Sequence record: HQ630627.1
Direction: 5' to 3' (one strand)
DNA: 64,000 nt
DNA from: Pseudomonas phage PhiPA3
Of the stretch, positions 2,581-62,902 are shown one piece after another. Each line of letters starts with the position of its first letter. The stretch's first letter is position 1. Position numbers and translations under genes: made by a program. The notes beneath the pieces were generated by a model. That model did not search any database and was not told the DNA's origin. It saw only the letters and a program-made list of their open reading frames with translations.

Positions 2581-3408
2581 ATGTCGTCTGAAGTCCAACC
2601 GAACATTCTCGGTGCACGATATACCCATTGTTTTATTCGTATTACTGGGGACCTGGAAGGAGCACGTTCTTTCTTCTACATTGAGGACGTTGATGGCTTA
2701 GGTTTACGGAAAACTGAAGAGCAACAAGAAGCTAAAGTCTTCCGCAATGATTTCGTGGATACTCTGTGGCTACCTTTGATTAAGAAACACCTGATGGCCA
2801 GCTACGATCGTACTAAAGGTAATCACATCTGGAGTATTCACGTCGTACCTCTGGTAGTTGTTGAAACTGATACTCGCCATTTCCACCTAGAAGTAAACGC
2901 TGATGAATCGGCTGAGTACGTGACTCCAGAAACCGAGATTGATCCGAACAAACTCGTTGTTGCCGAAACGTTCTCTAATGAACATCTCAATGAACTGACG
3001 GTTGAAGGTGAACTCAAACCACTGGATCCAGAATTGCTGTACAGCAATAGCTCGTTCATTGAAAAGAGTATCCGTAGTGTTGCGCAAGTTCCTCCACCTG
3101 ATGCGTTTGAAACCTACGAAGAACATTCAGCTTATGACGTGATCCAAGCATTGCGCCGAGTAGGCGAGTTGTCTAAAGTACAATCAATCACCGGTTCTCA
3201 TCAGCATACCTTCCACATGGAAACCAATGATGAAGGTAGCTTTGTTATTCACAAAGTCAGTATCCCTGGCATTGTATCGCCGACTGAATGGGGCGACCTA
3301 ATCGAGAAAGCAAAAGCATCCGGTTGGTATAACCTGTCTGCCGAGCAGTATGGTAAAGGTTCCGCGACTTACCAGGTTCTAAATCTCTGGCGAAAGCTGG
3401 ACATCTGA
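2581..3408 (+). CDS. hypothetical protein (275 aa)
   Basis: Long ORF directly after the promoter box; RBS-like ggagtt upstream. Confidence 0.6.
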   Translation: MSSEVQPNILGARYTHCFIRITGDLEGARSFFYIEDVDGLGLRKTEEQQEAKVFRNDFVDTLWLPLIKKHLMASYDRTKGNHIWSIHVVPLVVVETDTRHFHLEVNADESAEYVTPETEIDPNKLVVAETFSNEHLNELTVEGELKPLDPELLYSNSSFIEKSIRSVAQVPPPDAFETYEEHSAYDVIQALRRVGELSKVQSITGSHQHTFHMETNDEGSFVIHKVSIPGIVSPTEWGDLIEKAKASGWYNLSAEQYGKGSATYQVLNLWRKLDI

Positions 3409-3443: not shown

Positions 3444-3815
3444 ATGGCTTTCCCGACGTACGAATCTCTGCTAGATATCATTCAAGCAGATCAACCTGAT
3501 TACGCTACCATGCTTGCTGCTTTGCAAGCTGACATGGCAGACAATGACAAGGTGCTGGCCGGCTATCGCGTCCTCACCAAAGGCAACAAAGCGAGCCACG
3601 GTTTTGCTTTTCATGTCAAGGGCTGGTTCAGTGCCGCTGACTTGAAACAACTCAAAACCGATGTAGAAGCCGGTGGCGATATGACGATCTTTGAAACTAC
3701 GGCGTTCCAATGTCCAATGCCGCCCAACAGTGCTACGTTACCGCTGGCAGCTGAGGACAGTGTAGGTTATTCAACTACCCGCTGGACTCGTGTGATCCTG
3801 ACTGCCAAAGAGTGA
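3444..3815 (+). CDS. hypothetical protein (123 aa)
   Basis: ORF ends 6 nt before terminator hairpin 3822. Confidence 0.55.
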   Translation: MAFPTYESLLDIIQADQPDYATMLAALQADMADNDKVLAGYRVLTKGNKASHGFAFHVKGWFSAADLKQLKTDVEAGGDMTIFETTAFQCPMPPNSATLPLAAEDSVGYSTTRWTRVILTAKE

Positions 3816-23846: not shown

Positions 23847-25277
23847 ATGCACGCTTATCTCCAGCTGTTGGAAGACATCAAGAAATACGGTGTCTTCAAA
23901 GGAGATCGAACCGGGACTGGTACTCAGTCCCTTTTCGGTCGTCAGTTCCGTTTTGATCTGAAAGACAACAACCTGCCGGTTGTGACCACCAAGTTCGTTC
24001 ATACCCCGTCGGTTGAAGTCGAACACGTCTGGATGAAGAACGGTCTCACTAACCTGAAGTTCCTGCTCGATCACAACGTGCGGATCTGGAACGAATGGTG
24101 CAAGCCGGGTACTGAAGTGCGCGTACCGGTGGACGAAGGTGAGCTGGTTGATCTGGTTCAACGCAAGTTCAAGTACGTTGACTTCGAAATGCACCACAGC
24201 AATGAAATCGAAGAAGACTACAAGTTCATCCTAGATGGTGCTCGTACCAACGGCGAGAAAGGTGCGGTACTGCTGATGAGTGGTAAAGCCTGGATGGATG
24301 TCGAGCGTTTCGGCCCAGGCCCCACTACTTACGACTTCTATGGTCATGCTCGTCGAGTCTGGCAAATCGTCTGCGGAGAAACTACTACCCTTAAAGTAGG
24401 GGAAGACGGCTTTGTTTACCGTCTCGTAGATGGTGATCTGGGTCCGGTGTATGGTAAGACCTGGCGTAATATCGAGGACACTCGGATCATCAAGAAGGCT
24501 GAACTCCAGAACTTCTTGGATCGTAAGTTCACATTCGTGGTGGATGTACCGGGTACATCTCTGGAAACCGATCGAGCTGTAGTTACCCGTAATATCGATC
24601 AACTGGCTGAACTGCTCCATGACCTGGAACACAATCCGGATTCGCGGCGTCTGATCATCTGTGCCTGGGACCCGGCTCTGGTTGATGAACAGGCATTGCC
24701 TCCGTGCCACGCATTTATTCAGTTCTGGACTCGTAAGCTGGAACTGTCCGAACGTCTGAGTCTGTGGGTTTCCAATAATGCCAATGAATTCATCAAGCAT
24801 CTGTTGGATTATAAGGGGGATTGGCCGACTCAAAACGTTATTGACATCGTCAACACTGGCGAATACCAACAAGTCATTACTCAGGTAGCCGAAAGTGATT
24901 GGCTGAAGTTTGTAGAAGCATCGGGTATTGATCTGACTGGTATTCCTGAACGAGGCATTAGTTGCCAACTCTACCAGCGATCAGTTGACGCATTCCTTGG
25001 TTTGCCCTTTAACATCACCTTCTACTCGATCATGACTCATGCACTGGCCAACCAGTTCAACATGGTTGCAGAAGAGTTCATCTGGACTGGGGGTGATTGC
25101 CACATTTATTCCAACCACCAAGAACAGACTGATCTACAACTGACTCGGAATACGTTCCCGACTCCGAAGATTCATTTCCGTGAGAAAGGTAAACCGTATC
25201 TGGAACTGGACGTAGGTGATTTCGTGATCGAAGGTTATGAGTATCACCCACACATTGCTGGCAAGGTAGCCGTCTAA
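23847..25277 (+). CDS. thyA: thymidylate synthase family enzyme (ThyA-like, dUMP-type active site) with three large insertions (476 aa)
   Basis: DRTGTGT, LPVVTTK, DLGPVYGKTWR, NPDSRRLIICAW, PCHAFIQF (catalytic Cys), RSVDAFLGLPFNI and GGDCHIYSNH all conserved; about 95-, 30- and 65-aa insertions relative to the 264-aa E. coli ThyA. Confidence 0.8.
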   Translation: MHAYLQLLEDIKKYGVFKGDRTGTGTQSLFGRQFRFDLKDNNLPVVTTKFVHTPSVEVEHVWMKNGLTNLKFLLDHNVRIWNEWCKPGTEVRVPVDEGELVDLVQRKFKYVDFEMHHSNEIEEDYKFILDGARTNGEKGAVLLMSGKAWMDVERFGPGPTTYDFYGHARRVWQIVCGETTTLKVGEDGFVYRLVDGDLGPVYGKTWRNIEDTRIIKKAELQNFLDRKFTFVVDVPGTSLETDRAVVTRNIDQLAELLHDLEHNPDSRRLIICAWDPALVDEQALPPCHAFIQFWTRKLELSERLSLWVSNNANEFIKHLLDYKGDWPTQNVIDIVNTGEYQQVITQVAESDWLKFVEASGIDLTGIPERGISCQLYQRSVDAFLGLPFNITFYSIMTHALANQFNMVAEEFIWTGGDCHIYSNHQEQTDLQLTRNTFPTPKIHFREKGKPYLELDVGDFVIEGYEYHPHIAGKVAV

Positions 25278-25537
25278 TGGAAAAGACCACGTTATCGTTG
25301 GAAGAACGTTGTACCTATGGAGCTCGTCAATCGATCCGTAAGGAAAGTGAGGCATCCAATGGGTATTTTGTTTGCAACAGTTTCACAATCGGTAACGTGG
25401 CTTCTCTCAAGATCTGGCAGAAGCCCAATGTCACCGATGAAGAACTACACGTCAAGTTAGATCAGATGGGTTATCCGAAATATCTGGAAGACGTGGATCC
25501 TGTTGACCTTGTTAAACAAGAAGATACCAATGTATAA
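25277..25537 (+). CDS. hypothetical protein (86 aa)
   Basis: ATGA overlap with the thyA stop. Confidence 0.45.
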   Translation: MEKTTLSLEERCTYGARQSIRKESEASNGYFVCNSFTIGNVASLKIWQKPNVTDEELHVKLDQMGYPKYLEDVDPVDLVKQEDTNV

Positions 25538-25757
25538 ACATGTAGTAGATGGAAATGAATTGAGCAGTGCAGCCATTGATGTATTCCGCAGACTGTTCAA
25601 GAAAGGTTCCCAAGATGATGGTGATCTACCGTCCAAGTCGGGGATGCTGGAACTGATCCGTTGTGGCTTCGCCATGAAGGATTACACTATGGAATTACCT
25701 AACCGGCTGACGGTGGTAGGTCAGGAAGCTGCTGAACGTTTCTTTGGAGTACGTTAA
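25530..25757 (+). CDS. hypothetical protein (75 aa)
   Basis: ORF; start at the ATG overlapping the upstream stop. Confidence 0.4.
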   Translation: MYKHVVDGNELSSAAIDVFRRLFKKGSQDDGDLPSKSGMLELIRCGFAMKDYTMELPNRLTVVGQEAAERFFGVR

Positions 25758-26062
25758 TGCTTGAACAATCCCAGAACTGCTTCAAAATCAACTACGCTGA
25801 AATCATCGGTAACGAAGGTAAAACCGACGGTAAGCCGCTTACTGCTTTCGGTGATGAAGCCGAAGTTCAACGTCGGCTGCAAGAGCTGGTTGACAAAGAC
25901 ATCCTGCGTTGTTCGATTCATTGGGGCGCGCATGACTACGCCACCTTCGATATCGATGTTCCGGGTACCGACCAGGTTCAAATCCTGAAGCCCGGTGACC
26001 GTGTGAATTTCGTTGGTGATTCGTACGAAATCGTTATCGATCCATCTAACAAGGAAGAGTAA
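25757..26062 (+). CDS. hypothetical protein (101 aa)
   Basis: TAATG overlap. Confidence 0.45.
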   Translation: MLEQSQNCFKINYAEIIGNEGKTDGKPLTAFGDEAEVQRRLQELVDKDILRCSIHWGAHDYATFDIDVPGTDQVQILKPGDRVNFVGDSYEIVIDPSNKEE

Positions 26063-26748
26063 TGTCTACGACTAGACTGGAATACATCCTCGAAAAGATT
26101 GCCATCTCTGGTAATGGTGAACAATTCAAGCACAACTTCTGTACTTACCGAAATGGTCAAGTACTTGGGTTGGGTCGTCCTGGCGTCACCAGTCGGAAAC
26201 TACGTGATTGGTTGTTCACCCAGAATGCTCACCAGTTCCTGAGTGAAGAGGACATTAGTTATCTGATTCACTGCATGGACGCCTACAGCGCAACTGTGCA
26301 TGATGACCTCAATGAGTTCCTTTGTGAGCTGGGTCTGTGGTCTCCGGGGAAAGAATCTCCTGTGGATTGTCTGGCTGCGTTCACCTACCGTCTGTTCCAT
26401 GGAGACTTCGTTTCGTACGAGCGTTTCCAGCGTAACAGTCGTTTTGCTGAGGCAGCTTATGGCGCTGATATGGCTACTGAGGTATCTTACAGTAAGCCTA
26501 TACCAGTATTCACCAAGACACTGGAAGAGGCTGACCTCTGGTACGAATTTGGACAAGAGATCGCTCCGATCAATGAAGATGGTATTCGCCGTCTACCTGA
26601 GGACAAGAAGATTGTCCGGGACTGGTTGAACCAGCACAATCTCCCGTTGGTGTACACCTGCTTCGACTTCAGTCCGGAGCCTGTACCCGAGGTTGATGCA
26701 TCCGATGGTGAAAAGGTTCAGGAACACAAGTGTGCCATCTGTCAATAA
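26062..26748 (+). CDS. hypothetical protein (228 aa)
   Basis: TAATG overlap. Confidence 0.55.
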   Translation: MSTTRLEYILEKIAISGNGEQFKHNFCTYRNGQVLGLGRPGVTSRKLRDWLFTQNAHQFLSEEDISYLIHCMDAYSATVHDDLNEFLCELGLWSPGKESPVDCLAAFTYRLFHGDFVSYERFQRNSRFAEAAYGADMATEVSYSKPIPVFTKTLEEADLWYEFGQEIAPINEDGIRRLPEDKKIVRDWLNQHNLPLVYTCFDFSPEPVPEVDASDGEKVQEHKCAICQ

Positions 26749-26784
26749 CTACTCAAGTAACGACATGAGGCTAAGGAGAACTCC

Positions 26785-27009
26785 ATGGGTACTCTGAAGA
26801 CGGACTACATACGCTGCCCCACTCCGCAAGGGGGTGGGGGCGAATGTGAGTCAATCAAATGTCAAGCGACAAATCCAAAAAGCAGTATCGTCATCACCAT
26901 GAGCAACGCCACGTTAAAGCACAGGTGGCTATCTGGCGGTTCTACAACCAACAGGCAGCCAGTCTCGACGACCGCCGGCTCGGTCGGATGCGTAAAGAAC
27001 ACGCATTAA
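26785..27009 (+). CDS. Cys-rich small ORF (74 aa); alternative to 26859-27116
   Basis: Strong RBS taaggagaactccATG, but the product is low-complexity. Confidence 0.3.
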   Translation: MGTLKTDYIRCPTPQGGGGECESIKCQATNPKSSIVITMSNATLKHRWLSGGSTTNRQPVSTTAGSVGCVKNTH

Positions 27010-27116
27010 ACTGTGGTCGCTCTCACTGTATGCTCTGTGTGAATCCTCGTCGGACTTGGGGTCGTAAGACTCTGGCCGAAAAGGTAGCGGATATTCGCTT
27101 TAAGGAACAACAATAA
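26859..27116 (+). CDS. small basic Cys/His protein (85 aa); alternative to 26785-27009
   Basis: Ends 3 nt before terminator 27119; basic, CGRSHCMLC motif; no RBS. Confidence 0.35.
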   Translation: MSSDKSKKQYRHHHEQRHVKAQVAIWRFYNQQAASLDDRRLGRMRKEHALNCGRSHCMLCVNPRRTWGRKTLAEKVADIRFKEQQ

Positions 27117-27118
27117 TA

Positions 27119-27146
27119 GAGGGGGCTTCGGCCCCTTCTTTTATTC
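27119..27146 (+). terminator. rho-independent terminator (UUCG)
   Basis: gggggc-ttcg-gcccc + ttcttttattccc. Confidence 0.7.
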
Positions 27147-27162
27147 CCTCAAGGAAAATACA

Positions 27163-27471
27163 ATGCGGATAAATGATGACATGGGTTACGGGAATCTGAT
27201 TGACTTCCCCGAAGAGAAATTCATGAAAGCGGGTGAGTTGGTGCTGATCCGCAAAAGAACTGCCTACGCAGGTGAAACCCCCATTGGGCTTTACCAAGTG
27301 GCGGAGGATTGTTCTTTACCCAGACGCTACGAAGGGGAAGTCCGTGCAGACCTAGTATGGTCTGCCAAGGATAACGAGAACAGAATGCTGATCGAAGACG
27401 TTGAGAACCTGGTTGAACAGGGTAAGCTCAAGCCAGTCGAACATACATCTATCTACTATCGGGACGAGTAA
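27163..27471 (+). CDS. hypothetical protein (102 aa); homologous to the C-terminal domain of the next gene
   Basis: KAGELVLIRK..EDCSLPRRYEG..LVEQGKLKP vs KAGEIVQVYT..EDCVIPKRASG..LVDQGKLKP. Confidence 0.5.
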   Translation: MRINDDMGYGNLIDFPEEKFMKAGELVLIRKRTAYAGETPIGLYQVAEDCSLPRRYEGEVRADLVWSAKDNENRMLIEDVENLVEQGKLKPVEHTSIYYRDE

Positions 27472-27472
27472 C

Positions 27473-28183
27473 ATGTCAATCACAATTATTGTTTTCTCTA
27501 AGGAAGAACCGAGTGATTCCGACATCATGACGTATGTCGGTGCTATCCCTGGACTCAGTGGAGAAGATTTCCGTTACCGTCTGGCATGGAGACATCGCTG
27601 TAATAATGACATTCACAGCACCTTGTTTCAGATTTACGATGACGAGCATCATTCCGATAACTGTCATCTGTTGTTCAGGAATGGCCTGGTTACTGTCACA
27701 ACTATGACCGAAATTGCAGAGTTCACTCAGAACCTGCAAGACGAAATTAACTTCTACAGTAGTAACTTTGAGGAAGGGGTTAAAGCCGAAGTTTACTCGA
27801 TCAGCAATGGCGATACCTTGTACATTTTCCCTGATCAGGCCCATCGTGTTCATCATCTTCTTAAAGAAGATCTGAAATTGGTCTCCGACGACGAGAAAGA
27901 AGTAGCCGAATATACGTTGCTGGATAAGGACTATGAACTCAAAGCTGGGGAAATTGTCCAGGTGTACACCCACGTTAAATATGAAGGTGTATACGGCCAC
28001 GAGTTATACGAGGTCATCGAGGACTGCGTTATTCCCAAACGTGCTAGCGGTAGCGTTCTGAATCGCTACTTTGAAAAGGATGGTCGTAGGCAGAGAAACT
28101 ACGATGACGTTCAGACCTTAGTGGACCAAGGCAAACTGAAACCTATTAAATGCACCAGTGTTATCTACAAGGCCGAAATATGA
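27473..28183 (+). CDS. hypothetical protein (236 aa) with a C-terminal domain paralogous to 27163-27471
   Basis: ATG 2 nt after the upstream stop. Confidence 0.55.
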   Translation: MSITIIVFSKEEPSDSDIMTYVGAIPGLSGEDFRYRLAWRHRCNNDIHSTLFQIYDDEHHSDNCHLLFRNGLVTVTTMTEIAEFTQNLQDEINFYSSNFEEGVKAEVYSISNGDTLYIFPDQAHRVHHLLKEDLKLVSDDEKEVAEYTLLDKDYELKAGEIVQVYTHVKYEGVYGHELYEVIEDCVIPKRASGSVLNRYFEKDGRRQRNYDDVQTLVDQGKLKPIKCTSVIYKAEI

Positions 28184-28380
28184 GAAATCCATTTAGTGGC
28201 AGCAGTCTGTTCGACCTCCCTGAAGAAACCCCTGAAGAGAAGCTGCGTGCGATGTTCCATCCCTTCGGCGGTGCTTTCCGCGGCGAGATGAAATCGGATC
28301 ATGGCGAACGTACCAACCGAAAGATCAAAGATCAGCCGTTCTATCAACGTGGTCCGAAGAAGCAGATGAGGAAATACTGA
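28180..28380 (+). CDS. small protein (66 aa)
   Basis: ATGA overlap. Confidence 0.4.
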   Translation: MRNPFSGSSLFDLPEETPEEKLRAMFHPFGGAFRGEMKSDHGERTNRKIKDQPFYQRGPKKQMRKY

Positions 28381-28646
28381 TGTATCCGTTCGCTATTGCG
28401 GTTAGTCACGTGATCGCTGTATTCCTCGTCGTCTACGCTGTTGGTGGTATGGTCATTACAGCTCGTCACGTCATTGCCTTCGAGCGAATAAAACGTTTGT
28501 TCGCTGAAGGGAAACTCCAGGAGGTTATCGCCTTTCGAAAGATGACTAAGTACGATACCCAGATGGATGGCCTGACGTATTGGTGTTGTTGGGGGTTGGG
28601 TATTACAATCGCGATGTTGATCATTGCTGCGGGGTTAGCGCCATGA
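28380..28646 (+). CDS. small membrane protein (88 aa, 2 predicted TM helices)
   Basis: AIAVSHVIAVFLVVYAVGGMVI and WCCWGLGITIAMLIIAAGLA hydrophobic segments. Confidence 0.5.
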   Translation: MYPFAIAVSHVIAVFLVVYAVGGMVITARHVIAFERIKRLFAEGKLQEVIAFRKMTKYDTQMDGLTYWCCWGLGITIAMLIIAAGLAP

Positions 28647-29026
28647 GATATGAAACCTGGATTAACGCCTATCTAGCGGCTATTGAAACGTTGCGCAAGC
28701 GTCATGGATTGCGTGCGTATTACGACAAGCCGCTGGTTGAGCCGTACTACGAGCTGGAATTCAAAATGTTCAGTAAGCCTGATGAACCTCCAGCATACCT
28801 GGTCGCTTTCATGTACGAAGGACAACGGATCCAACTCCTGGTATTTGAGAATGATTCAGGTATTCAAGGACAGTTGTATAGCCTAGCTGCTGAACTTGGC
28901 GTTGCGATCGATTTTGACCGTGATCCTTTTGGGGCTGACACTGTATTGGTTAATACACTTGGTCCATTCGTTAAGTTGATCCACCATCTGGTATTGGATG
29001 GTTACGGGGGACGGAATGCACTATAA
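28643..29026 (+). CDS. hypothetical protein (127 aa)
   Basis: ATGA overlap. Confidence 0.5.
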   Translation: MRYETWINAYLAAIETLRKRHGLRAYYDKPLVEPYYELEFKMFSKPDEPPAYLVAFMYEGQRIQLLVFENDSGIQGQLYSLAAELGVAIDFDRDPFGADTVLVNTLGPFVKLIHHLVLDGYGGRNAL

Positions 29027-29369
29027 GCTCAAGTTCTATGACATGCTCTTCCAGAACATCGTTCAGTTCCATCTGGAGGAGGGGAGTAGCTTCAAGGACT
29101 TCGAGGTTGAAAGTACCCTTGGACATAAACTCCTCTTCCGCCGTATTCGAAATGATGGCGTGGATAAGATGTCATGGGAAATCAGGATCTCTCATGAAAC
29201 TGTAGAAATTACAGCCGATCTCAACGTCCCTGGTTACGATATCAAGATCAATAAGATCCTTGACTATGAATGGAAAGAGGTTAGTTTGGATGATCCGCGT
29301 GCGGTATTCATCGCCAGTCGGTGTTGTGCGGTTTTCGTTCGATTAATGGAGGACCAGTGGTATGTCTAG
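29016..29369 (+). CDS. hypothetical protein (117 aa)
   Basis: ORF; gggggacggaATG. Confidence 0.45.
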   Translation: MHYKLKFYDMLFQNIVQFHLEEGSSFKDFEVESTLGHKLLFRRIRNDGVDKMSWEIRISHETVEITADLNVPGYDIKINKILDYEWKEVSLDDPRAVFIASRCCAVFVRLMEDQWYV

Positions 29370-29829
29370 AAAGGTCAAGTTCTATTCGCGCTTGGCTGCA
29401 ATGGCTGTGACACAACCACATTACGTGATCTCCATTGGGGAAGCAAATGACGGCTGTGTATTGGACCCCGAACACAAATCGGTACTGCGTCTGGAGTTCG
29501 ACGATATCCCTTATCACGTCGATGGGTATCGTCTGTTCTCGTTGACTGACGCAAGACGAATTTTAAGGTGGCTACGAGACGTTCCTGAGAACGAAACCGT
29601 TATAGTCCACTGTGAGGCAGGGGTCAGCCGATCGGCTGCTGTAGCGCAATTCATGGTCGATCACCAGGGGTATGAACTGGAGAAAGATCAGTACTGTAAT
29701 GGGAGCTTCCTGTGTGCCAATGGCCATGTTTACGGCACACTAAGAATGACTGCGTTGGAAATTACTGACCAGTACCTTCTTATGGAAGCTGAATATGATC
29801 GCAAAGTAAAGGGTATTCCCCAATGGTAG
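29362..29829 (+). CDS. dual-specificity (PTP-family, Cys-X5-Arg) phosphatase
   Basis: VHCEAGVSRSAAV matches the DSP/PTP active-site signature [IV]HCxAGxxR[ST]; upstream acidic FDD as candidate general acid. Confidence 0.6.
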   Translation: MSRKVKFYSRLAAMAVTQPHYVISIGEANDGCVLDPEHKSVLRLEFDDIPYHVDGYRLFSLTDARRILRWLRDVPENETVIVHCEAGVSRSAAVAQFMVDHQGYELEKDQYCNGSFLCANGHVYGTLRMTALEITDQYLLMEAEYDRKVKGIPQW

Positions 29830-30035
29830 CATCACGCTTAGCGCCACCTCCTCCACCGGGTTCTATTCTGGTGAAGGATGTACGAGATCACATCCAGGAG
29901 ATGGTTGCATCGGAAATGGGTCCGATCGAGAATGCTTGGAAATTGGAAGACTGTAAGTACATACCCAAGGCTGGGCTGGCTCTACTACAGGAAGACATCC
30001 ACAAGCTTCTACGTAAACACTTTCGAGGAGAATAA
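29823..30035 (+). CDS. hypothetical protein (70 aa)
   Basis: ORF overlapping the upstream stop. Confidence 0.4.
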   Translation: MVASRLAPPPPPGSILVKDVRDHIQEMVASEMGPIENAWKLEDCKYIPKAGLALLQEDIHKLLRKHFRGE

Positions 30036-30037
30036 CC

Positions 30038-30397
30038 ATGAGCATCACTCTGAACCAACCGCTGGTCCCTGCACTCCGGGAATTCATGTGGGACGTAAGT
30101 CGCTCCGAAGGGGGTATGGTGCGAACCCAAGCCGACCAAAGTGCGATCATCGATGTCGGTAGACCTGATGAAGATTTAATTGAGAATCCGACGGTCCGCG
30201 AAAACGAAGCCTACAACTACGGGGTAATTGCGGGTTCCCTGGGGTTGATGGATTACTTGGTTGACAAGGGGTATTCCATTATTGATCCGGCTGGAATCAA
30301 GGTGGAGCGAGCAGAGAACAAAAGCTTCCTGGAAACCTTCTCTGAGAAAAACTGGCTTAATGTAGCTACTGGCGAAACCGACGACGCGCCTTTCTAA
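30038..30397 (+). CDS. hypothetical protein (119 aa)
   Basis: ggagaataaccATG. Confidence 0.5.
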   Translation: MSITLNQPLVPALREFMWDVSRSEGGMVRTQADQSAIIDVGRPDEDLIENPTVRENEAYNYGVIAGSLGLMDYLVDKGYSIIDPAGIKVERAENKSFLETFSEKNWLNVATGETDDAPF

Positions 30398-30436
30398 GAC
30401 TAATGGCGTCGTAACTAATCTAAATAAGGAAAATAC

Positions 30437-31828
30437 ATGGAAAACGTACTGGCCGAACTGAAACCCATTAAGGAAGGTTTCGGTGTCGTTGAAGAGACTC
30501 GCAAACTAGCGCGTATCGTCGAGATCGATGACGTAATCAAACACCCCAATGCCGATGCACTTGAACTGGCCATCGTTGGTGGTTGGCAACTGTGTGTGAA
30601 ACTCGGTGAATACAAGAAGGGTGATCGCGCGATTTATTGCGAGATTGATTCTCTCCTGCCCCTGTCCAATATCGAACTCTTCGGTTTCCTCGAAGCGCGT
30701 CGTTCGGACAACCGTCGTGTTAACGGCGTGAACTACCACCGGCTGAAGACCATCAAACTGCGTAAGGAACTTTCGCAGGGTCTGCTGGTGCCGGTACCGG
30801 CTGAATTCAAAGATGAACCAGTTGATACCAACCTGACCCTGAAGCTGGGTATTCTGAAATATGAATCCGCTCCGCAGATGGAACCCAAGGCTCGTATCGG
30901 TCGTGACGCCCCGTTCTTCGTGAAACTGGGCGCTCGGCTGATCGGTGATCTGGGCGGTGCTCTGCTCCCGTGGCCGAGCATGCTGACTAAGTCGGACCAA
31001 GATCGCATTCAGAACAAAGGCGTAGCTTTCCATACTGTCAAGGAACAAGGTGACGACATGGAAGTCACCTACAAACTCGACGGTAGCTCGATGACCGTGT
31101 TCTGTGTGAATGACAAGGTTGTCCGCACTGGCGTCTGTTCGCGTAACTACGAACTGGGTACCAGTGAAGCCAACTGGACCTTCACTGAACAAGTACGTTA
31201 CTGGCTGGGGAACTTCCTGATCCGTAACCGTAACGTGTTCAAGCTGAGGACCTGGTTCCGTCGTGAAGACGGCGTCCTGGAAGGTCCGCGTAAACCACGT
31301 TGGGGTCTGATCATTCCGGAATGGGTGAAGCGTGTCGATACCTCCGACAACAACTTCATCCGCGTTACTCGTGAACTTAAGATCCGCGAGAAGCTGGTGG
31401 ACTACCTCCAGGCTACTGGTCGCTTCATTACTGTTCAAGGTGAACTGATTGGTCCGGATATCCAGGACAACTTTGAAGGTGTGGACAAGCCCGAATACTA
31501 CGTGTACTCGGTGTACGAAGATGGTAACATCGTACTGCTCCCGAAAGAAGCACGTAAAATCGTAGCTGAACTCGGTCTGAACTACGTACCGCTGTTTGAT
31601 CCCGAGTGGAAACCTACCGCTGAAACCACCGGCAAAGATGTTCTGGCGATGGCTGAAGGTCCGTCTGCGTTCAAGAACAAACGGGGCTACCGGGAAGGTC
31701 TGGTGTTCAAGTCCAATCAACGAGTACTGTCTTGGAAGGCAATCTCGAATCGCTACCTTCTGAAGCAAGAAGAAGAGCTGGAAAAGAAAGCCAAAGCCGA
31801 AGAAGCAGCTGAAGCTGTAGTAGCCTAA
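30437..31828 (+). CDS. ATP-dependent RNA ligase with an N-terminal tRNA-binding (Myf/EMAP-like OB) domain
   Basis: N-terminus KHPNADALELAIVGGWQLCVKLGEYKKGDRAIY resembles tRNA-binding domains; nucleotidyltransferase motif I EVTYKLDGSSMTV; motif IV-like YREGLVFKS; lysine-rich tail. Confidence 0.7.
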   Translation: MENVLAELKPIKEGFGVVEETRKLARIVEIDDVIKHPNADALELAIVGGWQLCVKLGEYKKGDRAIYCEIDSLLPLSNIELFGFLEARRSDNRRVNGVNYHRLKTIKLRKELSQGLLVPVPAEFKDEPVDTNLTLKLGILKYESAPQMEPKARIGRDAPFFVKLGARLIGDLGGALLPWPSMLTKSDQDRIQNKGVAFHTVKEQGDDMEVTYKLDGSSMTVFCVNDKVVRTGVCSRNYELGTSEANWTFTEQVRYWLGNFLIRNRNVFKLRTWFRREDGVLEGPRKPRWGLIIPEWVKRVDTSDNNFIRVTRELKIREKLVDYLQATGRFITVQGELIGPDIQDNFEGVDKPEYYVYSVYEDGNIVLLPKEARKIVAELGLNYVPLFDPEWKPTAETTGKDVLAMAEGPSAFKNKRGYREGLVFKSNQRVLSWKAISNRYLLKQEEELEKKAKAEEAAEAVVA

Positions 31829-31837
31829 CGGCATACG

Positions 31838-31868
31838 GGGAGGCTTCGGCCTCCCTTTCTATTTAACA
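31838..31868 (+). terminator. rho-independent terminator (UUCG)
   Basis: gggaggc-ttcg-gcctccc + tttctattt. Confidence 0.7.
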
Positions 31869-37617: not shown

Positions 37618-38250
37618 ATGCACCAGGCTATCAATATTGCAAACATGGCGAATCAGGTAAAAGCGATTGTCCGTCAATATCCCACAACACTACACATCGA
37701 TACCAACAACAGCATCAACAAGGCAGCATATTTCTGCGTCAGTGCCTCCAATGCCTTGGGGTTGACTCGTTCGGATAAAACCACTCCGGCGTGGTATCAC
37801 CAATACTGGGCAGTGGAAGTTGGCAAGCTGTTTGGGTTGGCACCGGGGGATCTGACCATTCTGTGGTTGCACGATATCGTGGAAGACACTGGCTGGACTC
37901 ATGAGCAGATCTTCCAGCATTTCAGTGGTTATGTGGCTAAGGGTGTTAAAGCCCTAACCCATGAGAAACCTGAAGGTATGGTTCGTTGTGAGTGGATCGC
38001 GCTATATCACCAGCAATTGGCCGATTCTATCGACACCTATCAGACTATCAAACTGATCGAGTCGATGACTAATCTCTGCACGATTCTGGATGGATCGAAG
38101 AAACAAAAATTTGCTAAGGTATGGTTGGCTGAGCAGGTCCAGCTACATACCAAACTCGTTAAGGCCCATCCGGTTGTACGCGACGTTTATCATCACCTGC
38201 TATCTGAAACCCTGGATCGTTACAACGAACTGGTGAATCAAGCAGCATAA
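37618..38250 (+). CDS. HD-domain phosphohydrolase of the SpoT/Mesh1 type (candidate small alarmone (p)ppGpp/(p)ppApp hydrolase)
   Basis: ILWLHDIVEDTGWTHEQIFQHFSGYV matches the RelA/SpoT hydrolase signature (ALLHDxVEDT...FG); upstream H (WYHQYW) and a downstream KLIESMTNL (KLADRLHN-like) segment. Confidence 0.6.
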   Translation: MHQAINIANMANQVKAIVRQYPTTLHIDTNNSINKAAYFCVSASNALGLTRSDKTTPAWYHQYWAVEVGKLFGLAPGDLTILWLHDIVEDTGWTHEQIFQHFSGYVAKGVKALTHEKPEGMVRCEWIALYHQQLADSIDTYQTIKLIESMTNLCTILDGSKKQKFAKVWLAEQVQLHTKLVKAHPVVRDVYHHLLSETLDRYNELVNQAA

Positions 38251-60587: not shown

Positions 60588-61373
60588 ATGAATCGTCGTA
60601 CCGAATACCGTTTCTCTCTGTCATACGACCGTGAGCTGGTCGCTGCTAATCCACTGGGTTTCGTGGTTGAAGAATTCCTTGGAGGCTGGTTCAAAGAACT
60701 CGAAGAAAAGATCAATCGAGATTATGTAGCTAGCTATAATGTGCCTTTCCATGGTAGCTGGAACTACTTTGAGTTGGAGCAATTCCAAAACAATGCTTTC
60801 TTCAACCAGTACCACGAAGTAATGCAGTCCCTCGAAGCATTGGAAAAACAACTGGGCGAACGCGCCGGATTGCGCATCCAGATCACAAAACCTGAGTGTG
60901 CTCTTACCCATGTACTGATTGGTCAGGATAAGATTTTGTTGTCTCCTGATTGTGGTCACGTGGGTATCCGTGTTCCAGAAGGGACAGTGGTGGCTAGCGA
61001 AAGATGGGGTGACCATAGAGATCGTAACGTAGATTCCATTGCTGTGTTTGGTGAGCATTCCAAGATGCGCTACGTTGCCAAGCAGGTGCGCTACGCATTG
61101 AAGCAAAAAGGTGTAACCACGATCGCTAACAGTTCGATGGCGCGATTCCTACATGACCTCTTCCACCCCACCTACGAAAACAACCAAAAGTACAAGTTCA
61201 ACATGATCATGTCTGACGTGTATGTATTGGTGTTATTCAAGGATGGTGGTGCTGAGATCTATGGCAAGGATCTGGGAGAGATCTTCGAAAACCATAACCT
61301 GATATTCCTAGAACGGGAATACACCATTTGTGGACAACATTTCCCGATGTTGACTGGAGACCGTTTGGTATAA
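60588..61373 (+). CDS. hypothetical protein (261 aa)
   Basis: acaggagactccaATG. Confidence 0.55.
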   Translation: MNRRTEYRFSLSYDRELVAANPLGFVVEEFLGGWFKELEEKINRDYVASYNVPFHGSWNYFELEQFQNNAFFNQYHEVMQSLEALEKQLGERAGLRIQITKPECALTHVLIGQDKILLSPDCGHVGIRVPEGTVVASERWGDHRDRNVDSIAVFGEHSKMRYVAKQVRYALKQKGVTTIANSSMARFLHDLFHPTYENNQKYKFNMIMSDVYVLVLFKDGGAEIYGKDLGEIFENHNLIFLEREYTICGQHFPMLTGDRLV

Positions 61374-61375
61374 TC

Positions 61376-62902
61376 ATGGAAACATTGATACATTACTACG
61401 ACCTGTTCATGACAATCAGTCAGAAGAACATGGTCATGGGGGGTGTAATTGGAGCGGGGATTGGTGCTTTCTTCTGGAGTGTCCTTCGGGGCATTCCGAG
61501 GAAGACCATCAACGCGATTAAGTCGCAGTTGATATCCACGCTCCATATCACCAACGTGGGGAATCAGTTTAACGAGAAAAACTTCGATGCTTTCATGGAG
61601 TGGTATCAGAAGCAACCGTTGGCTGGGTATAACCGAAGACTCAGTGCGAACACAGTTGACGACTGGGTATCGTCCGATGAGAGAAAACCAACGATTGGGG
61701 TTGGCTTCGGTTTACACTTCTTCATGTACCGTGGGCGACTGTTTTGGTTTAATAAAGTTCGGATCGACGGTAACCAATCTGCCGTAGATAAGCAGGAGAT
61801 TCTGATCCATGGGTTGACACGTGATAAACAGCTCCTGGTAGACATGGTGGAAGAGTACCGTGTTAAGCGAAAGAAGAATGGCCTGACGATCTGTCATTGG
61901 GACGGCAATCGCTGGGGCAACGAGATTGAAGTCACCAAACGTGATCTATCAACCGTTGTTCTGAACAATGAGATCAAAGCTGGACTGATGCGTCGAATGG
62001 AGGAATTCTATTCTGGACGCGCGTGGTATGATGAACGTGGGCTACCCTACAAGTTCACGGTAGTTTTCCACGGGCCACCGGGTACAGGTAAATCGTCTTT
62101 GGCTAAAGCATTCGCTTCTCACTACAATAAAAATGTCAGCACGATGTCTTTGGCAGCCATGTCGAACGATACCCTGCGGCGAGCTTTCCTGACGCTGCCT
62201 AAAGGGAACATCCTACTCATCGAGGACTTTGACGATACACCTGCTGTCAAAGATCGCTTGTCTTCTGATCCCGTTAAATTGGAAAACGAGATTAAGCGAA
62301 TGGAACGTGAATATAAGCTGGAGTATATCGGCCATCTGTTTCCGGACATGCAGGAGTATGAGAACAGTGTCCAGCGCTACGTAGCTATCGATAAAGTTGC
62401 CATTATGGCAGACCTTAGCCACGAGCCTGCCGGTCTCAGTGTCAGCATGGGTGGTGTTCGTGATGAGATTGAAAGCCAGGGCTACCAGATGGGCCCCGTC
62501 AGTATTGATGACTACGCAATTTGTCAACGGTACGCTGAGCTTTTGGTTAAGCGCGATCAGGGTGTACAGTTTGATACGAGTTCAGGCTTGACTTTATCGG
62601 CGCTGCTCAATGCGCTCGATGGGATCGTTCCTTTGGATGAAACGATGGTTATCATGACTACTAACCATCCAGAAAACCTGGACGCTGCATTGACTCGTAA
62701 GGGTCGTGTGGATTACATGGTCGAGATCCCGTTGTTCCAAGATGCGGAGGTACGTGAGTACATCAATCTCATGTTCCCGGATTACGAGGTCCCTACGGAT
62801 ATTCGTTTCCGGCCCATTGCAGGTTGCGATGTCATGGCGGCCTTCAGTGAAAACCGGACCTGTCCAGAATCGATGATTCGCGCCCTACCTAAAGTAGCAT
62901 AA
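61376..62902 (+). CDS. BCS1-like AAA+ ATPase with an N-terminal transmembrane anchor (508 aa)
   Basis: N-terminal TM MVMGGVIGAGIGAFFWSVL; Walker A HGPPGTGKSS; BCS1-type Walker B ILLIEDFDD; sensor/Arg-finger TTNHPENLDAALTRKGRVD. Start moved from the listed 61328. Confidence 0.75.
   Translation: METLIHYYDLFMTISQKNMVMGGVIGAGIGAFFWSVLRGIPRKTINAIKSQLISTLHITNVGNQFNEKNFDAFMEWYQKQPLAGYNRRLSANTVDDWVSSDERKPTIGVGFGLHFFMYRGRLFWFNKVRIDGNQSAVDKQEILIHGLTRDKQLLVDMVEEYRVKRKKNGLTICHWDGNRWGNEIEVTKRDLSTVVLNNEIKAGLMRRMEEFYSGRAWYDERGLPYKFTVVFHGPPGTGKSSLAKAFASHYNKNVSTMSLAAMSNDTLRRAFLTLPKGNILLIEDFDDTPAVKDRLSSDPVKLENEIKRMEREYKLEYIGHLFPDMQEYENSVQRYVAIDKVAIMADLSHEPAGLSVSMGGVRDEIESQGYQMGPVSIDDYAICQRYAELLVKRDQGVQFDTSSGLTLSALLNALDGIVPLDETMVIMTTNHPENLDAALTRKGRVDYMVEIPLFQDAEVREYINLMFPDYEVPTDIRFRPIAGCDVMAAFSENRTCPESMIRALPKVA

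Follow-up and report, generated by a model that had tools for sequence, protein, structure and literature searches.

Family context of a Cys-phosphatase encoded close to an Rnl5 RNA ligase in Pseudomonas phage PhiPA3 points to polynucleotide-end chemistry but not to a conserved two-gene repair module

Does Pseudomonas phage PhiPA3 encode an RNA-repair module made of a phosphatase with the protein tyrosine phosphatase (PTP) fold and an RNA ligase, or do two independent genes happen to lie close together? The question concerns a stretch of 64,000 nucleotides of the PhiPA3 genome (HQ630627.1; hereafter, the window), in which a first-pass annotation had proposed that a Cys-phosphatase of the dual-specificity phosphatase (DSP) type and an ATP-dependent RNA ligase reverse the damage caused by anticodon nucleases. 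The two genes are:

29362..29829, plus strand: minimal DSP-like Cys-phosphatase, 155 aa (gene 286; PhiPA3 AVT69_gp284, 'protein 286')
30437..31828, plus strand: Rnl5-family ATP-dependent RNA ligase, 463 aa ('RNA ligase [PhiPA3]', 'protein 289')

The idea of a PTP-fold phosphatase in phage RNA repair was supported by the gene adjacencies, fusions and Thg1 overlap of the phosphatase family, and was not supported for the PhiPA3 pair as a module. An autonomous RNA-end (or nucleotide) phosphatase and a stand-alone Rnl5 ligase, both of them accessory counter-defence genes, is the reading preferred here, and it is given an even chance of being correct.

The active site proposed for the phosphatase, VHCEAGVSRSAAV, was located from aa 82 (nt 29605-29643), with C84 as the nucleophile and R90 in the same loop, and the assignment to a DSP-like family and fold was sound (CX5R loop on a PTP alpha/beta fold). 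The phosphatase is almost certainly active, because H83, C84, G87, S89, R90, S91 and D48 were invariant in 31 homologues. In the mechanism proposed, the P-loop and R90 would hold a phosphomonoester for attack by C84, and D48 is the candidate, and the probable, general acid. The match to Pfam DSPc (PF00782) extended over aa 76-106 only and scored less than the gathering cut-off (27.1 vs. 33.5 bits), and PTP-SAK (PF22784) did not match the PhiPA3 phosphatase at E ≤ 1. The P-loop and the nearest folds were of the atypical DUSP type (STYX, 2r0b; DUSP15, 1yz4; DUSP28, 5y15), from which the PhiPA3 phosphatase differed by its low identity (17-18%), a different N-terminal strand order region, a long C-terminal helix and its phage context. 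Membership in the PTP-type RNA 5'-triphosphatases (BVP/PIR1/Mce1) was rejected on fold ranking and P-loop type (the group has a characteristic P-loop and no general acid); baculovirus BVP (1yn9) and human PIR1/DUSP11 (4mbb) use a Cys-phosphatase fold on RNA 5'-tri- or diphosphate ends, and the fold can thus accept RNA termini. A profile search returned 4,146 cluster representatives of the family, which spans phages and bacteria, at E ≤ 1e-10, mostly stand-alone proteins of 135-160 aa. Median isoelectric points of the family clades ranged from 5.8 to 6.5 and did not separate RNA-linked from stand-alone members.

The genes surrounding the phosphatase family were examined in sets of the best 80 loci per pattern-based scan, which are biased by the motif so that fractions are not population estimates, and in which open reading frames (ORF) were called mechanically. 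The phosphatase pattern was HCxAG[VI]SRS, leaving out the HCxAGxCRS clade; ligase loci were fetched with an alignment, as a single-sequence ligase search returned none. In the viral phosphatase-alignment loci, Rnl5 was found within about 1.1 kb of the phosphatase in L060/61, L066 and L081; it was also found within about 1.5 kb of a family member in L172/173, and 1.5 kb from one in P0045, a bacterial or prophage contig. In the ligase-alignment loci, a phosphatase-family member followed 0-1.5 kb downstream on the same strand in 6/80 (L101, L102, L104, L115, L116 and L126), and a polynucleotide kinase (PNK)-like AAA_33 kinase adjoined the phosphatase in all six, often with the addition of a metallophosphoesterase, a TROVE-like DUF2828/DUF7788 protein or an HD_4 protein. 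All ligases met in phosphatase flanks were at most 1.5 kb away, with 10 kb searched on either side. At least six separate viral lineages have a distant family member within about 1.5 kb of Rnl5, in most cases accompanied by a PNK-like kinase, a metallophosphoesterase or both. In Synechococcus phage BUCT-ZZ01, an isolated cyanophage (L179), the kinase, metallophosphoesterase, phosphatase and Rnl5 genes were all within 12 kb. The adjacent kinase and phosphatase genes of the six cassettes and of L179 look like a two-gene analogue of Pnkp. A ~303-aa unannotated protein with no Pfam match (L115 8048-8959) occurred at most 3 kb from Rnl5 in 12 of the best 80 viral loci.

Associations with RNA repair extended beyond the ligase. 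Further family members lay near a cassette-type metallophosphoesterase, RlaP, or a TROVE-like protein together with RtcB. Two fusions were found, one of the phosphatase with HAD_SAK_2 (P0184; PF18143, 'HAD domain in Swiss Army Knife RNA repair proteins'; 5e-26) and one of a cassette-type metallophosphoesterase with the phosphatase (P0231). The homologue P0004, 56% identical to the PhiPA3 phosphatase and in the same subclade, overlapped a Thg1-family gene by 14 nt (PF04446; 3.4e-25). The Thg1 family acts in tRNA 5'-end repair. This locus (L005 8001-9252) is part of a 280-kb phage contig, with a NUDIX gene about 3.5 kb further downstream. Because fusions and adjacencies tie the family again and again to enzymes that heal RNA ends or repair tRNA, the most likely role of the PhiPA3 phosphatase is that of an RNA (polynucleotide) terminal phosphatase, which would act autonomously in the phage toolkit that counters RNA-damaging defences. 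The family context points to polynucleotide-end chemistry more than the DUSP-like face of the protein does.

The identification of the second gene as an RNA ligase was confirmed by Pfam, PDB and NCBIfam matches, and the KLDGSS motif I was found to start at aa 213 (K213; nt 31073-31090). The ligase matched PF21189 (PHA02142 OB; 4.6e-24) and PF09414 (1e-16) in Pfam, phrog_968 (3e-119), NgrRnl (PDB 5cot; 6e-44) and TIGR02306 (DRB0094, which is DraRnl; 3e-38), the last with a score of 131.5, under the trusted cut-off of 151. Residues R4, D53, K121, R149, K170, D172, E227, E312 and K326 of NgrRnl, whose roles in ATP and metal contacts have been described (PMC7261155), corresponded to R22, D71, K141, R190, K213, D215, E336, E420 and K434 of the ligase, and these nine, which cover the motif I (KxDG) lysine, motifs III/IV/V and the OB residues in contact with the ATP gamma-phosphate, were invariant or nearly so in an alignment of 33 homologues. 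The ligase also had the Rnl5 architecture, with an N-terminal OB module and a C-terminal nucleotidyltransferase and without a C-terminal domain. Since every ATP- and metal-contact residue of NgrRnl has an equivalent, the 463-aa protein is, on its sequence, a canonical Rnl5 RNA ligase, ordinary and already annotated. Two of its parts need to be located:

30497..30880, plus strand: N-terminal OB module (about aa 21-148), with the fold of the tRNA-binding Myf/EMAP-II/Trbp111/CsaA domains
31175..31384, plus strand: ~70-aa insertion in the nucleotidyltransferase domain relative to NgrRnl (aa 247-316)

The description of the OB module as a tRNA-binding domain was upheld by fold similarity to solved tRNA-binding domains and not by sequence membership, as PF21189 was the only match at E ≤ 10. 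In NgrRnl, this module has been shown to act in lysine adenylylation (PMC7261155); in the PhiPA3 ligase, it may bind tRNA. The insertion, common to PA1C-like ligases only, absent in the ligases of L060, L066 and L081 and with no match in Pfam, together with a short acidic and alanine-rich tail, sets the PhiPA3 ligase apart from NgrRnl and DraRnl. Rnl5 enzymes join 3'-OH(RNA)/5'-PO4 nicks in duplexes (PMC5397189, PMC7261155). By homology with NgrRnl and DraRnl, K213 would be adenylylated with the help of the N-terminal OB module, and the ligase would seal 3'-OH/5'-PO4 nicks in base-paired RNA; the tRNA-binding type of the OB module suggests broken tRNA stem-loops as the likeliest substrate, and in PhiPA3 the phosphatase could hand ligatable ends to the ligase. 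A megablast of the region against phage records, in a collection without PhiPA3, returned as its sole match a 392-nt stretch of the ligase gene of phage D6. A 442-aa ORF on the minus strand (30506-31834), antisense to nearly the whole ligase gene, is most probably no gene but a shadow ORF of the ligase frame.

The ORF list gave the four ORF of the first-pass annotation on the plus strand and at the coordinates that it had reported. They correspond to PhiPA3 genes 286-289, and the phosphatase and ligase proteins were 100% identical to their PhiPA3 database entries. Those between the phosphatase and the ligase, and the features that delimit the surrounding unit and island, are as follows:

29823..30035, plus strand: orf70, 70 aa, overlapping the phosphatase stop by 7 nt
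30038..30397, plus strand: orf119, 119 aa, fast-evolving (AVT69_gp286, 'protein 288')
27118..27139, plus strand: strong terminator-like hairpin with a 9-bp stem (6 G-C pairs) and a T tail, the likely 5' boundary of the unit ending with the ligase
31837..31856, plus strand: strong terminator-like hairpin beginning 9 nt past the stop codon of the ligase, where the unit likely ends
25278..30035, plus strand: accessory island of variable content, bounded by thymidylate synthase (23847-25277) and the orf119-ligase pair, with 11 small ORF including the phosphatase

The two hairpins enclosed a unit of about 4.7 kb with ten ORF, all on the same strand. An upstream ORF (28998-29369) overlapped the start of the phosphatase by 8 nt, and the overlap of phosphatase and orf70 was followed by gaps of 2 nt (orf70 to orf119) and 39 nt (orf119 to ligase). 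Co-transcription is plausible because the hairpins bracket a tightly packed, same-strand unit, and the co-directional phosphatase and ligase are probably co-transcribed in it. NCBIfam and PADLOC gave no match for the phosphatase, orf70 or orf119, and a tRNA scan of the window found no tRNA genes. The suggestion that orf70 and orf119 are accessory parts of the pair was not sustained: orf70 had no detectable homologue and no family match, and orf119 was kept upstream of the ligase in PA1C-like phages only (33-37% identity), the homologue search with orf119 returning the protein itself alone.

In PA1C, a phiKZ-like jumbo phage, the collinear counterpart of the window lies at 214-255 kb. Seven PA1C-like genomes had 26.7-28.1 kb between the ligase (75% identity) and the homologue of the phosphatase ('similar to PHIKZ040'; about 52% identity), the latter adjoining a virion-protein array. 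In four further jumbo contigs with both genes, the distance was about 81-82 kb (50 kb in one of them if the contig is circular). The phosphatase-ligase linkage expected of a T4-type module was thus absent in 11/11 related genomes carrying both genes, and the claim of a conserved module, for which the first-pass annotation had itself named neighbouring homologues in related phages as the test, fails with the genes 27-82 kb apart. The phosphatase of PA1C-like phages is placed between the virion-protein array and a gene matching window 3444-3815; at that place, PhiPA3 has a 275-aa ORF (2581-3408) that is unrelated and matched no family.

The interval between thymidylate synthase and ligase was a hot spot for cargo, as compared in the window (25278-30035), L003 (32342-38868), L177 (461-6194) and L094 (8474-9691), with a length of 1.6 kb in Psa21-like contigs, 7.3 kb in PA1C-like phages and 5.2 kb in PhiPA3. 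PA1C-like cargo comprised RlaP, RtcB, PRPP synthetase and NAPRTase; that of PhiPA3 comprised 11 small ORF, the phosphatase among them, unrelated to the PA1C-like cargo. Noxifer-like contigs had the phosphatase directly after thymidylate synthase, with no ligase within 8-10 kb. Judged from this gene order, the juxtaposition in PhiPA3 is lineage-specific and would have arisen in the variable accessory island; there is no conserved two-gene module, and the juxtaposition does not show that the pair is obligate. What recurs near Rnl5 in related phages is RtcB, directly upstream in L094 and at a distance of 3.4 kb upstream in both PA1C and L177; RtcB acts directly on 2',3'-cyclic-P/5'-OH ends (Iyer et al. 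2021 review). The RtcB/RlaP block of PA1C-like phages had no homologues in the 64-kb window. Two island ORF (27163-27471 and 27401-28183) were tandem paralogues with an 82-aa C-terminal domain in common (40% identity; E 4e-17), and their annotated starts overlap in different reading frames.

The other component of a T4-type heal-and-seal system, a polynucleotide kinase for 5'-OH ends encoded alongside the ligase, was absent from the window. The earlier remark that no P-loop kinase lies nearby was accurate, as the window had two Walker-A matches only, one in an ORF of 69 aa and one in a BCS1-like AAA ATPase; the latter (BCS1_N and AAA; 61328-62902) was the only credible P-loop protein of the window. 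A PNK-like match to a 67-aa minus-strand ORF (E 8e-4) was judged spurious. Neither a PNK-like kinase nor a cyclic phosphodiesterase was found in the window, and the 102 phage records with a cassette-type kinase included no Pseudomonas jumbo phage. Because of these absences, the phosphatase and ligase alone could not mend the 2',3'-cyclic-P/5'-OH breaks left by anticodon nucleases. PhiPA3 resembles phage T4, with its anti-PrrC Pnkp and Rnl1, in encoding a phosphoesterase and an RNA ligase able in principle to restore a broken tRNA; unlike T4, it has no 5' kinase in the window, a PTP instead of a HAD fold, and a nick-sealing Rnl5 instead of Rnl1, and the two genes are unlinked in related phages. 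Comparable in logic are the Clostridium thermocellum-type Pnkp (kinase, metallophosphoesterase and ligase) and the separate-gene cassettes of L101, L115, L066 and BUCT-ZZ01 (Rnl5, PNK-like AAA_33 kinase, metallophosphoesterase and PTP-family phosphatase). PhiPA3 has the ligase and the phosphatase only, and its phosphatase is not in the deep clades from which those of the cassettes come.

It is quite unlikely, then, that the locus is a dedicated heal-and-seal module in which the phosphatase obligately converts 3'-P or 2',3'-cyclic-P into 3'-OH for Rnl5, with orf70 and orf119 as accessories, and which reverses anticodon-nuclease damage. The arrangement on one strand in one terminator-bounded unit with overlapping ORF, the tRNA-binding type of the ligase OB module, the recurrence of phosphatase-Rnl5 adjacency in unrelated phages and the persistence of orf119 beside the ligase in PA1C-like phages all agree with such a module. 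It is contradicted by the missing linkage in the related genomes and by the missing homologue of orf70; without a 5' kinase in the window or in related Pseudomonas jumbo phages, 5'-OH ends would stay unligatable, and the six ligase-linked cassettes do have a kinase beside the phosphatase, often with a metallophosphoesterase as well. No PTP-fold enzyme is known to open cyclic phosphodiesters, which also counts against it.

The mobility of the phosphatase gene bears on a different explanation, a host-directed protein phosphatase. Near-identical copies were found at:

L009 3980-4465: JBD44, temperate siphophage
L010 4980-5465: Ab03, 86-kb myophage (Nankokuvirus)
L176 5998-6465: MIJ3 (MIJ3_00317), 288-kb jumbo phage (Arenbergviridae)

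All three phages infect P. aeruginosa. Several observations weigh against an RNA-end role. The DNA of the gene was 92-96% identical among the three phages, with identical proteins in JBD44 and Ab03, and the copies lay amid unrelated small genes. Rnl5, kinase and metallophosphoesterase genes were all missing from the complete JBD44 genome. In MIJ3, the gene carries the annotation 'virion structural protein', on an unverified basis and with the MIJ3 paper silent on it. In the Pseudomonas-phage clade of about 55 sequences, as delimited by a distance tree without support values, no member besides those of PhiPA3 and P0004 adjoined Rnl5, a metallophosphoesterase or RlaP, and in the same tree most ligase-linked phosphatases fell in three deep clades outside that of PhiPA3. 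Literature searches on phage DSP and on phiKZ phosphatases turned up nothing relevant and no biochemical data for any family member.

The nucleotide identities indicate that a phosphatase cassette of about 0.5-1 kb recently moved horizontally among three unrelated phage types. Since near-identical copies occur in unrelated phages and JBD44 has no repair genes, the phosphatase of the JBD44/Ab03/MIJ3 clade is, by this comparison of genomes, a self-sufficient mobile accessory gene. Such a gene could serve host takeover or anti-defence by acting on host Ser/Thr/Tyr phosphoproteins, as in kinase-based defence or signalling, its adjacency to the ligase being coincidental. The atypical-DUSP P-loop and nearest folds, the recent transfer amid early or accessory genes, the lack of any RNA-repair gene in JBD44 and the separation of the two genes in related jumbo phages would all fit, and the MIJ3 annotation would suit an injected effector. 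A protein phosphatase leaves unexplained the tight linkage of the family to Rnl5, the PNK-like kinase and the metallophosphoesterase, the fusions to SAK-HAD and metallophosphoesterase, and the Thg1 overlap of the 56%-identical homologue, and it is held to be unlikely, with some real weight left to it.

A hydrolase of nucleotides or modified ends, working independently of ligation on small nucleotides, on the pyrophosphorylated tRNA 3' ends of toxSAS/CapRel-type damage, or on phosphorylated immune signals, is very unlikely. It would account for the company that family members keep in ligase-less loci (metallophosphoesterases and an AAA ATPase), for the NUDIX genes of L004 and L005, which lie a few kb downstream, and for the HD_4-type hydrolase of the L115 cassette with its weak homologue in the window. 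Some PTP-fold enzymes cleave phosphoanhydrides, which is in its favour. The association of the family with kinase and ligase favours polynucleotide ends over free nucleotides. The ligase-less loci (L171 2526-7792 and the P0044 contig) showed a recurring set, in which the family member has metallophosphoesterase genes, one or two in number, and a ~490-aa AAA ATPase at its sides. The homologue in the window (37618-38250; 210 aa) bears a weak resemblance (4e-8) to the HD_4 protein, of RelA/SpoT hydrolase type, in the L115 cassette, and its PA1C-like orthologue carried a weak HD_4 Pfam flag.

An autonomous RNA-end phosphatase of this type would not be an undescribed chemistry, as the first-pass annotation had suggested it could be; as an idea the claim fails, since Pfam has an entry for a 'Swiss Army Knife protein, DSP-PTPase phosphatase domain' (PF22784). 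The SAK RNA-repair proteins (PF22784, PF18143) share with the family a DSP-type Cys-phosphatase in an RNA-repair setting, and the family member P0184 is fused to HAD_SAK_2; the PhiPA3 phosphatase differs from them in being single-domain and without a PTP-SAK match, in a window with no HAD, kinase or nucleotidyltransferase partner. The L115 cassette phosphatase gave a weak match to PTP-SAK, below threshold (9.5e-5). A survey of jumbo-phage RNA repair listed HAD, calcineurin-like, HD and 2H phosphoesterases and no PTP-fold enzymes (PMC7824862). A DSP-PTPase in RNA repair is thus not new in principle, and had not been noted for this phosphatase family or for PhiPA3. It is a rather improbable prospect that the phosphatase will be the first PTP-fold RNA end-healing enzyme shown by experiment, a 3'-phosphatase or 5'-polyphosphatase readying broken tRNA ends for Rnl5 (and for Thg1-like enzymes in relatives).

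Rnl5 ligases are widespread and without an established physiological role, which has been called 'uncharted' even in Deinococcus (PMC5397189). The links of the phosphatase family to Rnl5, PNK-like kinases, metallophosphoesterases, SAK-HAD and Thg1 provide a concrete biochemical hypothesis for PhiPA3, a well-studied model phage, and for the cyanophage BUCT-ZZ01. Should the RNA-end hypothesis fail, the phosphatase would still be an accessory gene that spreads horizontally among P. aeruginosa phages. With their DNA shielded, nucleus-forming jumbo phages are exposed mainly to defences that cut RNA or tRNA, and for this reason their RNA-repair genes are likely counter-defence genes. If the RNA-end hypothesis is true, a nucleus-forming phage with shielded DNA would gain a kinase-independent way to undo RNA-targeting host defences.

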